DNA of 64,000 nucleotides, taken from the IMG/VR virus record IMGVR_UViG_3300042914_003763, positions 53,114-117,113 of that record. One strand, given 5' to 3'. The notes below the pieces were generated by a model, which was not told the DNA's origin, made no database searches, and saw nothing but the letters and a program-made list of their open reading frames with translations. Of the stretch, positions 48,758-55,915 are shown piece after piece. Positions within the stretch are counted from its first letter, which is position 1. Each line of letters starts with the position of its first letter. This DNA comes from a virus. A program made the position numbers and the translations under genes.

Positions 48758-49129
48758 TTATGCCTCCAATTAATACAAAATCCGATGCACACACAGTACA
48801 CCGGATAAACTACTACATATCTAGAAGTATATCTAACAGACGATCTACTTCTCTTGATAACTCTGTATCTTCAGGATACCCGTAATGACAGATACTATCG
48901 TCATCATCCTCATCAGAGTAAATTAAATGAAATATACGGCTCATATCACCTTCCTGTTGTTGATCATCTTCTAACATAAACAACCATAATAATGAATATT
49001 ATAGTTAATATACTTCATCAATTTTGTTTAAGCAAGAATAACGTTATTAATTAAACAGCTAAACCATTAAGATCCGCCGATCTTGTATTATTAATTAATT
49101 AGCAAATGTAATATGAAGTGATTACTAAT

Positions 49130-49595
49130 TAATCAATAAATCCCACATAATGTTCAAGGAAATTAGATACACCTATCCTTAATACCCAACTCTCTCTCTC
49201 TTAGTATATAAGAGCGTTTTAACGTTGCGACTTGGTTGTTAACTCAGTGCAACTAATTAATTACCGTTAGCTACTGTTATAGCGTATCTTAACTATTGTT
49301 AAGCGGTGTTACGTGACTTGACGGGACATTACCAGGTAACTCTTGATGTCCGATCATTGTGCATCCATGAATGTAACTTCTTGCGATAAGTTATTCACAC
49401 AACCTATCTCGTTGCTTTCACAACGTTCATGGATGTAAAGCTACTAGTGAACTAAGTCATTTCATGTTCAGAGGTTTCTCTTTCAACATCTAGTGCCTTA
49501 CGGGAACGACAAACCACCTAAACCGTTACCCCGCATACCAGCCGATACCGTGAACTACGTAACGCAGTATCAGGTGATCTTTCAATATCAGCTAT
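49130..49595 (-). ncRNA. Candidate large structured ncRNA (ends approximate)
   Basis: ORF-free, GC-enriched; GNRA-capped hairpins and a 10-bp closing helix on the - strand; TATAAT box upstream. Confidence 0.55.
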
Positions 49596-49597
49596 TT

Positions 49598-49625
49598 AAT
49601 ATTATAAACATTTTTTTCTATCTGT
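49598..49625 (-). promoter_or_regulatory. Probable promoter of the candidate ncRNA
   Basis: - strand reads AGATAGAAAAAAATGTTTATAAT; the same ATGTTTATAAT occurs in the 14.2-kb promoter. Confidence 0.5.
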
Positions 49626-49708
49626 GTTGATTAAATTTAATGAGATAGAAAAAGTAGTAAGCCGCTACATGAACAACTTACTACTTGTTGGAAACACTTA
49701 GCTCGTAG

Positions 49709-50560
49709 TTACGATATCCAATTTAAGTTAGTAACCTTACAACCTGCGGAATTTTGATGTCCTCCCCCGCCTAATTGTTTAGCTAACACACTAACATCAA
49801 AGTTATGTGTTTTCTTATTAGACCTAAAGCTAATAAGATATTCATCTTTGTGTTTAACTATTGCAACTACGAATAACGTAGTAGGATTAGTATTGTAGAT
49901 GTAAGAACAAACATCGCTAACTAATCTACTATCTTCATAAGGTATTTCAACAACTAACACTTCGTAATCAATTACCTTACGCCACTCAGCAGTAGTAGCT
50001 ATTTCCTTAATACGATTACGCTTAGGTTGTAACAACTTAACACCTGTATGAACTAATAACTTAATTAGTTCATCTTGTGTTAATGGTTCTAGTACATCAT
50101 ACAAGGTGTATGACTTACGTAATGAACTAACACATTCGTGAATCTCTTCACTATAAGGTAGATCAAAGTTCCATAAGTCACGATCCTTAACATAGTTAAG
50201 GAACGCAGGTACTACTTCATTAGGAAAGAAATGTTTCCATGTTAAAGTTGCACCACACTCATTCATATCGAACTTAGCTAATATACGACCACTAAGATTA
50301 GATAAGTCATTCATTGCTGTCTCATGATGATCAATTACTATAACTTCACAACCATCATCAGCATATTTTTCTAACTGATTTGCAGGGAAAGAAAAGTCAA
50401 CTATCACTAACCTGGAGTTAGAAAAAGAGGGTGTGTCTCCATAACAACACCCTATTATTTCTGCATCTGGATAAACTTTAGCAGCTACCCATGATGCAGC
50501 AAATCCGTCAGGACAATCCGTAGTCGGATTAATCCTGTGATAAATAATTATAGTTTTCAT
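49709..50560 (-). CDS. DHH/DHHA1 phosphoesterase
   Basis: YH..DCPDG, IVDFS, IDHH, DRDLW, GGGGH..SAG. Confidence 0.9.
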   Translation of the reverse strand: MKTIIIYHRINPTTDCPDGFAASWVAAKVYPDAEIIGCCYGDTPSFSNSRLVIVDFSFPANQLEKYADDGCEVIVIDHHETAMNDLSNLSGRILAKFDMNECGATLTWKHFFPNEVVPAFLNYVKDRDLWNFDLPYSEEIHECVSSLRKSYTLYDVLEPLTQDELIKLLVHTGVKLLQPKRNRIKEIATTAEWRKVIDYEVLVVEIPYEDSRLVSDVCSYIYNTNPTTLFVVAIVKHKDEYLISFRSNKKTHNFDVSVLAKQLGGGGHQNSAGCKVTNLNWIS

Positions 50561-50875
50561 TTACTTTCTCACTAAAGTACAGGGTCGTCCTGTTGAGTGG
50601 AATGACGCTTTATACTCATCTAATTTTATATCCATACCTGCATCATACAAGGCATGAATAATCTGACTAATTGTTTGATGATTCTTACCTAAAGTGGAGG
50701 CTATTTCACGGTAAGTTAACATTTCATCTTGAATTAAACCTAATATCTCAATTACAGTTTTGATACTAGGCTTCAAGATTGGTAATAGCCATTCTTGTTC
50801 GCTATTAGTCAGTTCCATAAATTTAGTTATTTCAGGAGCTAACTCTTTAATCCTTTCTAAACTTTCGACGTTCAT
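50561..50875 (-). CDS. Helix-turn-helix DNA-binding protein
   Basis: LTYREIASTLGKNHQTISQIIHAL. Confidence 0.7.
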   Translation of the reverse strand: MNVESLERIKELAPEITKFMELTNSEQEWLLPILKPSIKTVIEILGLIQDEMLTYREIASTLGKNHQTISQIIHALYDAGMDIKLDEYKASFHSTGRPCTLVRK

Positions 50876-52759: not shown

Positions 52760-53225
52760 TTTCTAGAAGTTGATAAAGGTACTTCTAGCATAAACCGTTA
52801 TTGAAGGCAATAACCTGTAACTTATCTTTGCTTCCTTATAGTTACAGTTTTGTTACTTGTCTTGGTGTAACAATAACCTAGACTTGTTGCTAACTACGTT
52901 AGTAGCGTACTGTGAGAAATACAACCTCTACAGTAATAAGTTTAGTTAGGATATTTCTAATCACATTTGTCGTGATTCTTATTGCAATAAGAAGAAATAT
53001 CAATTAGCATTTGTCGCTACTTAACTAATTAACTTACCGTAAGTCATTCCTACATACATTAGTGTCATCTAATTAGTTACTGTAGTTATAACTAATAGAT
53101 CAAGTGACTAGAACACAACTAATCTAGTATCATAAGTTGAAGAAGATAACACCTCTAATGTAATAACGTAATTAACTTAGTTTTACATCTAGCATTACTG
53201 TAACTAGATAACCTTATCACAGGTA
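52760..53225. other. ORF-free array of tandem and nested hairpins (candidate ncRNA or origin)
   Basis: Many adjacent inverted repeats, e.g. CTAGAAGT/ACTTCTAG, GTTATTG/CAATAAC, CTGTAACT/AGTTACAG, GATATTTCT/AGAAATATC. Confidence 0.5.
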
Positions 53226-53230
53226 GAAAA

Positions 53231-54583
53231 TCAGATATCTTGACGGTAAATGCCACCAGTGGCAGCACTTATCATCTTGAGATGATCGTTACTGCTATTT
53301 AGGATGAATGAGTGCAACTTAGCACCCTTTAGATCCCCAGGTTTAACACTAGTTGCATCGTCTTCACCATCGTTTACAACAATGATGTGACGATCTCTTT
53401 TGGAAATAGCACCTTTATTTTCAAGTGCTATCTTATCAAACTCCTCTAACGCTTCTTGAATAGCGTTAGCTACATCAGTTCCACTCTTGTCGAAAGAGTG
53501 TTTTATGATCTTTTTTCTATAAAATTTATCTATATTACCATCATCAGGCAATAGATAGAATTTATGACAAGAACTCTCAAAGAAAGAGAAATTTAACCAA
53601 CATTCACCACGTTTAACACGCTTGAGAATGTTGTGTATTATACCTATAGCTTTCTTTGACTTGCTATTAGTCTGCATACTACCTGAATCATCAACAATAA
53701 GCGTAACAAACGGCATTTTAAACTCTCGTTTGTATTTTTCATCAACTCTTGCTTCATTGTTGATGACACGATATGCCATCATTGGTAATGGGTTTACAAG
53801 TTCTAATGGGTTTATGCGATGAAACTCATCAAAACCCTTAATACTACGCGCTATTTTAACATCACCTTGATCATCCTTGATTAATTTAGATGAAGGCTTA
53901 GTTTTTATGGCTGATATCTTGTCCATTTCGTTACTAGCACGAAGAATATCGCGCATAACATCGGACTTAACAAGACTTTCAATGTTATAATTATCATCAT
54001 CTTTTAGATCAAGAAGTTCTTTATCTTCTTGATCTAATTTTTCAACAAGTTCAATCGCTTCGTTGATTTTTTTAGCTTCTTCTCTAACCTTCCCTTCAAA
54101 GGTAGAAAAAATGGGAATGGTTGGTGAACCACTACTATCATTACTACCAGATGATGAATTAGCTTCTTCACCGAGATATTTAATTGTATTAATTGCTTTT
54201 TCAAGTGGGGTAGTACCTGGAATACCATCCAGGTTTAATGATTGAAGAAAGGTTTGGATATTTTGATGATAGCCAACATCTTTTTCTACCCATGCTTGTT
54301 TAGCGATTGAGTAATTTTTTGTATAATTAGAATCGAAATCGTTTGGGTTATCGGGTAATGTGTAGTCACCATCATAATCCGGTTCTAACACTTTATTAAA
54401 GTTGTTAGAACAGTGATCAAAAATATTACTAGCGGATACAAATGATCCACCACTAGCGATATTACACAAATCTTCTACTAAGTCAGGAGCATATGCCTCT
54501 ACTCCTAATTCTTTAGCTAATTTTCTTACTTCATCAGCAGATGGATGAAGGTAACTAGGTGAAGGGATAGTTCTAATCGTCAT
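53231..54583 (-). CDS. VWA-domain protein (ViaA/CoxE-like)
   Basis: MIDAS DDSGSM, SGTD, VVNDGED. Confidence 0.85.
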   Translation of the reverse strand: MTIRTIPSPSYLHPSADEVRKLAKELGVEAYAPDLVEDLCNIASGGSFVSASNIFDHCSNNFNKVLEPDYDGDYTLPDNPNDFDSNYTKNYSIAKQAWVEKDVGYHQNIQTFLQSLNLDGIPGTTPLEKAINTIKYLGEEANSSSGSNDSSGSPTIPIFSTFEGKVREEAKKINEAIELVEKLDQEDKELLDLKDDDNYNIESLVKSDVMRDILRASNEMDKISAIKTKPSSKLIKDDQGDVKIARSIKGFDEFHRINPLELVNPLPMMAYRVINNEARVDEKYKREFKMPFVTLIVDDSGSMQTNSKSKKAIGIIHNILKRVKRGECWLNFSFFESSCHKFYLLPDDGNIDKFYRKKIIKHSFDKSGTDVANAIQEALEEFDKIALENKGAISKRDRHIIVVNDGEDDATSVKPGDLKGAKLHSFILNSSNDHLKMISAATGGIYRQDI

Positions 54584-54673
54584 ATTTGACTATTTTTTTT
54601 TGGTTATTAATGAGATAGAAAAATAATAGTAGTTAAGTTAGTATGTTGCGATTAACTTAACTACTAATTAATA

Positions 54674-55855
54674 TTAGAGCGATTCAGATCCACACATGAT
54701 TGAATTATCACGTTCATTAGCAGCCTTAACTACGAGATCCGCGCATTTCTTCTTAACGTTGTTAATACGTGATGTTAACGAGTCTGGATATTTACCGCTA
54801 TTACTAATCTCTGTCTCTAATGATTTAGCAAGTTTCCATATTATAGCGGCGTTAACTAATTTTCCCTTCTCAGGGTTATTAAGTTTATGGAAACCTCTAT
54901 CAATTCTTCTTTCAAATTCGTTTATTTTTTCTACCTGAATATCGTATTGTTTCTTGCGTTCCATCTCTTCTTCTAGACCTGCTAGTAGAGATGTATCCCA
55001 ATACGATAAGTAGTTCAAAATTCGTAAATCTTCCATATCAGCAGTATTAGCATCACGAAGATAAGCTGCTGATTTGATAAGTTTTTGTGTCCATTTATAT
55101 GCTCTAGGAGATATAATACTCCCGTTTTCTCCTGATTTTTGTGCTAGATGTTGGAGTAGACCTTTAATGGAACTACTTAGGATAATACTTGACACATCTT
55201 CACGCATCATATCAATTTCCGTTATATCAATAGCAGATACGTCATGTTTAACTAGTTCATCATCATCGAGAAGAGCATAATCTGCTGCATCATGACTATC
55301 CCAGCCATGATTAACAACCAGAAATCGTTGTAAAAAGGCATCGTATGAATTTTGTTGAATCTCAGGTAGAGATTCTTTTAGTTCAATTGGGTTAAGATTT
55401 GTAGCAGCAACTAATACTTTGTTAATTGACTTTATTTCTTCACCACTAATATTTAACATACGATTAGTGATGACAGCTTTCAATACAGATAACGCGTTAA
55501 AACTCGCATCTAACGCTTCTTCAAAGAAAAACTTGTGTCGTTGTAATACAGAAGCAGCAATATTATAATGTGCTTCTGTTAGGTCGTATTTTTCACCCTT
55601 CAAAGTACGACCAATTGCGCCACCTTTTATGTGACTAGCTGATGTTTCAGGGTCACATTCAAGCATACCCTGAGATCCTTTTATTGCTTTAAACGAACTA
55701 AGAATCATTTCAGTCTTACCATAACCACCTCTACCGTAGTAGAGGATTGGAATACCGGAAAGAATAGATAAAGATAAGGAATCAGAAAAACTATCGAATT
55801 TAACAAAACCAGAGTTAGCAAGTTGAGCGTTGATAGAAGATTTGATTGTAGACAT
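54674..55855 (-). CDS. MoxR/RavA-family AAA+ ATPase
   Basis: GRGGYGKT, FFEE, AATN, AFLQRF, ISPRA; start re-set to MSTIK. Confidence 0.82.
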   Translation of the reverse strand: MSTIKSSINAQLANSGFVKFDSFSDSLSLSILSGIPILYYGRGGYGKTEMILSSFKAIKGSQGMLECDPETSASHIKGGAIGRTLKGEKYDLTEAHYNIAASVLQRHKFFFEEALDASFNALSVLKAVITNRMLNISGEEIKSINKVLVAATNLNPIELKESLPEIQQNSYDAFLQRFLVVNHGWDSHDAADYALLDDDELVKHDVSAIDITEIDMMREDVSSIILSSSIKGLLQHLAQKSGENGSIISPRAYKWTQKLIKSAAYLRDANTADMEDLRILNYLSYWDTSLLAGLEEEMERKKQYDIQVEKINEFERRIDRGFHKLNNPEKGKLVNAAIIWKLAKSLETEISNSGKYPDSLTSRINNVKKKCADLVVKAANERDNSIMCGSESL

Positions 55856-55886
55856 GACTCGTACTCCAATATGATATGTGGTTAAC

Positions 55887-55915
55887 AAGTTAGTTTAATG
55901 ACATAACTTAGGTCA
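55887..55915 (-). ncRNA. H-type pseudoknot motif, copy 2
   Basis: UGAC-CUAAGUUAU-GUCA-UUAAAC-UAACUU. Confidence 0.6.

Follow-up and report, generated by a model that had tools for sequence, protein, structure and literature searches.

A candidate gene for a pseudoknotted structured RNA on an exchangeable cassette of an uncultured lake phage

Introduction

On balance, the stretch at 49151-49607 (minus strand) of the DNA analysed here is best explained as a free-standing gene whose product is a highly structured, pseudoknotted non-coding RNA of about 440-470 nt; this RNA would act in trans, and its gene is carried on an exchangeable cassette. The components of this reading differ in strength. 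That the element is a structured RNA gene is highly probable; that it plays a trans-acting accessory role is probable; and a binding or decoy mechanism, taken specifically, is put forward tentatively, as a proposal that may well prove wrong. In what follows, the window denotes the whole stretch of 64,000 nt, corresponding to positions 53114-117113 of a virus record of 117,113 bp that has direct terminal repeats of ~128 nt, and positions are those of the window unless genome positions are named.

The phage is an uncultured lake phage of 117 kb with a genomic G+C content of 32.1%, and its genes include those for its own DNA polymerase, a primase/helicase-like protein and ribonucleotide reductase, the polymerase being less than 30% identical to those of the nearest cultured phages. 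All or part of the element stretch is contained in 20 of the 22 listed runs, and the holder runs are lake-water or freshwater metagenomes from 20 studies, none of them an RNA run and five being a possible source of the record. The RNA gene is located in the right arm of the genome, which is rich in small genes and subject to high turnover.

The element and its gene neighbourhood

The element occupies a gap of 725 nt (48984-49708) between the gene for a DHH/DHHA1 phosphoesterase of 283 aa on its upstream side (49709-50560, minus strand; phrog_4771 at E 1.6e-73, Pfam DHHA1 and DHH) and an acidic ORF of 56 aa on its downstream side (48813-48983, minus strand). A previous sequence-only reading of this DNA, made with no database searches, had described the region as ORF-free and raised in G+C, and so it is: the gap holds no ORF of at least 50 aa, its only two ORFs of at least 30 aa (31 aa and 45 aa) are both on the plus strand, and the G+C fraction in 200-nt windows at 49200-49599 is 0.38-0.425 against 0.27-0.34 in the flanks, the element as a whole having 39.2% against the genomic 32.1%. 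Each reading frame contains at least five stops in both lineages' copies (the second lineage is introduced below), and of the indels that separate the two copies, with lengths of 1, 1, 18, 8, 1, 16, 1 and 6 nt, five of eight are not multiples of three. Judged by its sequence, the element at 49151-49607 is thus non-coding, with no conserved reading frame in either copy. It is single-copy in this genome by covariance-model searches with both its 3' domain (model R1) and its 5' domain (model R2).

The DHH gene is followed by a terminator-like hairpin of 15 pairs and a T run (49652-49686, minus strand), and just past this hairpin, where a TATAAT box had been pointed out earlier, lies a sigma-70-like promoter candidate (49601-49630, minus strand) composed of TCAACA, a spacer of 18 nt and TATAAT at 49606-49601 (10 of 12). 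At the aligned place the homologue has TTGTAA, 18 nt and TATGAT. Promoter-like sites in the region number two, which is below the shuffle mean of 6.3, so that only its position and its conservation speak for the promoter candidate. The RNA would start near 49594, ~7 nt past the -10 box, and sequence conservation ends near 49151. Between the RNA and 48806-48780 there is no terminator-like site, the latter lying after the 56-aa ORF, and the RNA could therefore head a longer transcript. The interval downstream of the conserved RNA (49043-49141) contains three AT-rich 21-nt repeats with a TTAATTAAT core, spaced by 44 and 34 nt, together with AT-rich inverted repeats of 18 nt; these are not conserved in the homologue and may represent operators, iteron-like sites or a weakly terminating region. 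The product of the 56-aa ORF is strongly acidic and contains D and E runs; it has no family match, and likewise the small proteins near the RNA gene have no Pfam or PHROG family.

Some further features of this part of the genome deserve mention in their own right. Immediately upstream of the DHH gene, 50561-50875 encodes a protein of 104 aa with weak helix-turn-helix and sigma-70 region 4 matches, which fall below the Pfam cut-offs (E about 1e-4); from these matches it could be a small transcription regulator. A gene pair encoding a VWA-domain protein of 450 aa and an AAA-type ATPase of 404 aa is present once, at 53231-55888, and upstream of the VWA gene a second stretch, of 464 nt (52767-53230; genome 105880-106343), is devoid of ORFs of at least 45 aa, has no Rfam match at the gathering threshold and, among the matches listed, is uncovered by nucleotide matches to the second-lineage phage G001.

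A homologue in a second phage lineage

A 23-mer taken from a 49-nt piece of the element (49217-49265) was used to find contigs in IMG/VR, and all seven contigs so found (L101-L107) carry a homologue of 49151-49607 (blastn identity 70.4-70.7% over 460 nt). These seven represent four near-identical variants and are counted here as one independent second lineage. In one of them, L106, the element lies in an ORF-free gap of 613 nt and has the same orientation as its neighbours, which are different ones (71 aa and 660 aa). The second-lineage phage G001 (111,623 bp, 92% complete) is collinear with the present phage, and its DNA polymerase is 47% identical; alignment at the nucleotide level between the two genomes extends over ~18 kb only. 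In this comparison the RNA is the 12th best of 47 genome-wide nucleotide matches and the best of those beyond 68.3 kb, that is, in the replication/small-gene arm. The 49-nt piece at 49217-49265, in the form of the second lineage's copy, is found in other lake contigs, one of them at ~400x depth in one lake metagenome.

The two genomes also differ in ways that concern other genes. In G001 the VWA/AAA pair takes the form of two tandem pairs (96331-101143), 35-47% identical to the pair in the window, and lies on the opposite side of the RNA gene, indicating that the arm has been rearranged. The DNA polymerase of G001 is split into two adjacent ORFs of 264 and 478 aa (71682-73774; loci L127-L129), which jointly cover the single 698-aa polymerase of this phage.

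Searches beyond these two lineages returned little. The covariance model R1 matched five of five known holders and had no match in 100 sources, comprising 99 loci anchored on DHH homologues and the locus L119, nor in any of 50 records from phages whose DNA polymerase is related, 11 of which are at least 90% complete. When R2 was run against a largely overlapping set of 50 records, the control G001 was matched convincingly and the only other match was one of 12 bits (E 0.29) in G044. Neither version of the RNA had a blastn match among 50,697 GenBank phage records. A scan for the exact pattern TATNGGCTGGTATGCGG yielded 18 loci, of which seven are the known holders and the other 11, having no nhmmer match, are taken as chance; two further exact patterns returned the same seven loci only. 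Pattern scans of GTDB gave no locus and then one, L119, in an Oscillospiraceae MAG, which R1 does not match. The RNA family would thus appear to be narrow, comprising two lineages within the collections and methods used.

Predicted structure of the RNA

Applied to an alignment of five rows, RNAalifold predicted 130 pairs, 17 of them with changes on both sides. Refinement removed a helix that overlaps the promoter and a badly aligned variable domain, and added two pseudoknots from an exhaustive scan, to give a structure of 112 pairs in 16 helices. On this structure 99.1% of cells are paired, against 31-45% in six slid controls, and 16 pairs are changed on both sides, against none in each slid control and 5.3 +/- 1.7 in shuffles (0 of 500 reach 16), the contrast with the slid controls being inflated by the derivation of the structure from the same sequences as were counted. 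With only two independent lineages there are too few for a statistic of the R-scape type. What is found in these two lineages, namely helices kept by compensatory changes on one strand, is what would generically be expected of a structured non-coding RNA, and the homologue search proposed with the sequence-only reading in this way supports its central claim.

The assignment to the minus strand, made earlier from GNRA loops and G-U pairs, is likewise favoured by the comparison, with 34 G-U cells against 11 on the other strand and a consensus energy of -89.0 against -69.5 kcal/mol. Folding energy, by which the same reading expected an RNA to surpass shuffled sequence, gave a borderline answer: the minus strand does fold better than most shuffles (z -2.20, 2 of 100 as good), and the plus strand does so as well (z -2.95, 0 of 100), so that the energy is marginal, fails to separate the strands and leaves comparative data as necessary. 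Several sub-domains fold no better than shuffles.

The architecture predicted from the model has at least 11 helices; its 5' domain contains a pseudoknot of 11 bp and its 3' domain a near-invariant hairpin, P9. All its parts are read on the minus strand. In the 5' domain, P1 (49537-49596) is a helix of 14 pairs, formed by 49596-49583 with 49550-49537, which has one compensatory pair and 97.6% of its cells paired, and which encloses both the 5' strand of the pseudoknot and the hairpin P2 (49568-49554). The pseudoknot (49511-49580) pairs 49580-49570 with the loop of P3 at 49521-49511, its strands being AGAUCACCUGA/UUAGGUGGUUU in this phage and AGAUCCCUUGA/UUAAGGGGUUU in L106, such that 11 of 11 base pairs form in both lineages, two of them compensatory, with 100% of cells paired. 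The P3 hairpin itself (49500-49534) contains four compensatory pairs, and is followed by the helix P4 (49437-49499), which includes a hairpin insert (~49463-49485) opposite an alignment gap in the homologue. One detail of the sequence-only reading is not upheld here: CC-GUAA-GG (49503-49496), which had been taken for a GNRA-capped hairpin, is no hairpin in the comparative structure, its halves belonging to different helices, and the homologue reads CCGUAGG.

The other elements named in that reading are present on the minus strand, most of them in a variable three-way-junction domain (49362-49435; z -4.34, 0 of 200 shuffles). This domain is closed by the 10-bp helix 49435-49426 with 49371-49362 and carries the GAAA-capped hairpin CGUUGU-GAAA-GCAACG (49425-49410) together with a 10-bp hairpin with a GUGA loop (49408-49385, from the MFE fold); the GCAA loop is found at 49384-49381. 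At the corresponding place the homologue in L106 has a different closed domain, which folds no better than shuffles (z -0.51). The GGACAU/AUGUCC helix noted earlier, within 49351-49324, forms part of the hairpin P6 (49319-49356; UGAU.GGACAU / AUGUCC.GUCA), which has one compensatory pair and a loop of 16 nt containing UACCUGGUA. A second pseudoknot candidate, 49377-49373 with 49312-49308, is accompanied by one compensatory pair and has an equally covarying partner at 49563-49559.

Further towards the 3' end, P8 (49263-49307), with its inner hairpin P8a (49303-49288), has two compensatory pairs, and the stretch 49285-49270 in this region aligns to a gap in the homologue. The stem of P9 (49224-49253) is invariant and, showing no variation, has no covariation support; its loop of 13 nt differs between the lineages by one deleted base, and the hairpin falls in the longest identical stretch (24 + 18 nt). 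The remaining part (49151-49222) consists of the variable hairpin P10 (49222-49186) and P11 (49185-49151), with three compensatory pairs. The alignment puts the 18- and 16-nt indels at peripheral hairpins. Self-complementary words in the loops occur at chance level (P 0.74 for a 6-nt palindrome, 0.20 for a 4+1+4 quasi-palindrome), and the invariant segments share five 10-mers with the two phage genomes, which is about chance by estimate, none of them in homologous genes.

Relation to known RNA families

At the gathering threshold, the 4227 models of Rfam 15 have no match in the whole window, and at E up to 10 the only matches are at chance level and outside the element (sau-13, E 2.9; DapZ, E 7.7); the homologue in turn returned only mir-318 and RAGATH-17, the latter scoring 23 bits where the gathering score is 102. 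The Infernal-type comparison with Rfam suggested earlier has thus identified no family. The accompanying remark that no tRNA, tmRNA or RNase P signature was visible also holds, since ARAGORN reports no tRNA or tmRNA gene in the window and RNase P has no match in Rfam 15 at E up to 10.

Among the specific candidates, group I introns come to mind because those of phages are of similar size, have a pseudoknotted core and GNRA loops and are mobile between related phages, and size, pseudoknot, GNRA-type loops and mobility are features that they share with this RNA. Group I introns are built on a P3/P7 pseudoknot arrangement, unlike the pseudoknot of this RNA, which joins a junction strand to a hairpin loop. 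Intron_gpI matches neither lineage at E up to 10, the element is intergenic between complete genes, and the related phage L021, described below, has another cassette at the site and not joined exons. A retron or DGR-type RNA is disfavoured by the lack of any reverse transcriptase match (PF00078) in the genome, and a Ro60-associated Y RNA by the lack of any Ro60/TROVE match (PF05731), the control genomes being positive in both cases. GOLLD and ROOL are usually sited near tRNA islands; this RNA is not beside one, the sole tRNA of the genome, a tRNA-Asp at genome 45579-45651, being ~57 kb away from the element (genome 102264-102720), and neither lineage has a match to their covariance models in Rfam 15 at E up to 10.

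GOLLD and ROOL nevertheless offer the closest description in kind, being large, multi-helix, pseudoknotted and phage-encoded, as is this RNA. They were first found in environmental sequence, are of unknown function with no known protein partner, and, like OLE, form RNA-only assemblies (PMC12286853). Many GOLLD members exceed 800 nt (PMC12286853), this RNA being shorter at ~450 nt. A second comparison is provided by the viral screen of Fremin et al. 2023, which sought conserved intergenic structure with covariation in viral contigs, using data of the IMG/VR type, and which reported 10,006 candidates, those described in its abstract being mostly tRNA-like structures, terminators and cis-regulatory leaders (PMC10690425). 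The type of evidence is the same as that used here, and in a comparison by description only this RNA is set apart by its ~450 nt and its own promoter-like site. No title or abstract was found that describes this RNA, and we rate it as a new RNA family of a kind already known, namely large structured RNAs encoded by phages, with the proviso that the candidate tables of Fremin et al. may include it.

An exchangeable cassette

When the gap was compared with 99 loci anchored on DHH homologues, from IMG/VR and metagenomes, one locus was found to resemble it, and this at the edges only. In this locus, L021, whose DHH protein is 97% identical, 70 nt at 87% identity and 39 nt at 100% enclose ~554 unrelated nt (L021 3914-4467) in place of window 49023-49638 (minus strand), and the replacement comprises an ORF of 86 aa, with a ribosome-binding site, and another of 32 aa. 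The genes downstream of the slot (56 aa and 133 aa) are the same in L021, the 56-aa ORF being identical. Shared flanks with a different, protein-coding cargo indicate that the RNA is exchangeable accessory cargo in a fixed slot, with the DHH terminator at one end and the upstream region of the following gene at the other. No Pfam family matches the 86-aa ORF; in a single comparison it shows a weak resemblance to an ORF of 80 aa in the second lineage (at 392-634 of L106; 29% identity, E 0.023).

Mobile gene cassettes bounded by promoter and terminator are familiar from T4-type phages. The likeness lies in the boundaries, one just behind a terminator hairpin and the other just ahead of the following gene's regulatory region, and in the swapping of cargo among relatives; the difference is that T4-type cassettes carry protein genes and the cargo here is an RNA gene. 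A lake strain, X11, adds information on more recent events. Its record 3 has 12 substitutions in ~450 nt of the DHH gene, seven at third codon positions, and none across 49191-49700, and an RNA identical across strains with diverged DHH genes points to a recent sweep or transfer. Beyond 49191 the record diverges from the window, which suggests that another breakpoint of recombination lies within the 3' part of the RNA. The same strain has an 8-nt insertion at 49703, just past the DHH stop codon.

Proposed role and alternative explanations

In the mechanism that we favour, host RNA polymerase would read the RNA from its own sigma-70-like promoter (49630-49601) right after the DHH terminator, and the product would act in trans as a folded molecule. 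It might bind or decoy a host or phage factor and so contribute to host take-over or counter-defence, in which case its functional surface could consist of the conserved joining segments together with the invariant hairpin P9, and the variable hairpins would be a peripheral decoration. A gene on an exchangeable cassette is to be regarded as an accessory gene and not as an essential cis element, and the combination of a high-turnover arm, exchange with a protein cassette and identity across strains favours an accessory role in take-over or counter-defence. A bolder proposal would see the RNA as the founding member of a new class of large, pseudoknotted 'ornate' RNA, a mobile accessory gene of abundant lake phages whose product is a ribozyme or, in the manner of ROOL, GOLLD and OLE, a self-assembling RNA-only particle with no dedicated protein, the near-invariant P9 loop (with its GUUAAC) and the P6 loop (UACC-N-GGUA) providing kissing contacts between molecules; this is speculative and, we think, unlikely.

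Several other explanations account for part of the evidence. Orientation shared with the neighbours, the position of the next terminator-like site beyond the 56-aa ORF and a 5' domain whose compact pseudoknotted fold is of aptamer-like size would all suit a cis-acting leader (riboswitch-like, an attenuator or an antiterminator) that controls the 56-aa ORF and beyond from the same transcript. We consider this improbable, as the class of downstream gene is not constant between the lineages, with the 56-aa ORF here and the 660-aa ORF in L106, and as in L021 the 56-aa ORF and the same 39 nt upstream of it follow a protein-coding cassette, with the RNA absent; moreover, between the RNA and the next start codon lie ~170-200 nt that are not conserved, and no Rfam riboswitch matches at E up to 10. 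From this distribution, the RNA appears not to be required in cis by its neighbours. The absence of the RNA from this site in L021 weighs also on the idea, which the sequence-only reading had named as the alternative, of a replication origin or primer transcript, in which a structured pre-primer RNA beside AT-rich repeats would start DNA synthesis. Such an origin could make use of the promoter-like site of the element and of the three AT-rich 21-nt repeats and the inverted repeats just downstream (49043-49141), but a different cassette at the site in so near-identical a phage would be surprising if the origin were essential (the part of the L021 contig searched being 6.8 kb), the repeats are unconserved in the homologue, and cumulative GC skew makes no turn at the element. 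By our reckoning the many peripheral hairpins and the pseudoknot also exceed the needs expected of a primer, and the alternative, fitting poorly, seems very improbable.

Catalysis would be a natural thought for an RNA of this complexity, since large ribozymes are typically large, pseudoknotted, GNRA-looped and multi-domain, and the size, pseudoknot, GNRA-type loops and multi-domain fold found here may be likened to theirs. A ribozyme moved into the slot, whether self-cleaving or of an intron-like type that is degenerate or free-standing, would also be in keeping with the mobility of the cassette; against it, neither copy matches a group I, group II, RNase P or small-ribozyme model (Rfam 15, E up to 10), no gene is interrupted, the RNA-less site holds another cassette and not a joined exon, and no homing endonuclease or reverse transcriptase gene adjoins, so that we hold it to be quite improbable. 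Finally, the conservation might reflect sites at the DNA level, such as protein operators or recombination sequences, with pairings that are coincidental and no RNA function at all. The modest folding z, alike on both strands, and the restriction to two lineages could be read in this way, but the 16 compensatory pairs against none in the slid controls, the strand asymmetry of the G-U pairs, the placing of indels at hairpins and the presence of 457 nt conserved to the same degree as structural genes, in an arm with little other alignable sequence, make it the least credible of the explanations considered. A free-standing, trans-acting structured RNA on an exchangeable cassette is thus the reading that we retain.

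Significance

Large, intricately folded RNAs are rare, and most of those known are ribozymes, ribonucleoprotein cores or, as recently recognised, RNA-only cages. The present element would add a further family of large RNA, with its own promoter-like site and with a conservation like that of the structural genes of its phage; co-occurring lake phages exchange it as a cassette, and it offers a new target for RNA structural biology. Its value is for now limited by a narrow distribution in two lineages. The finding nonetheless suggests that the accessory regions of phages, usually read for small proteins only, may carry genes for RNAs of take-over or counter-defence as well.
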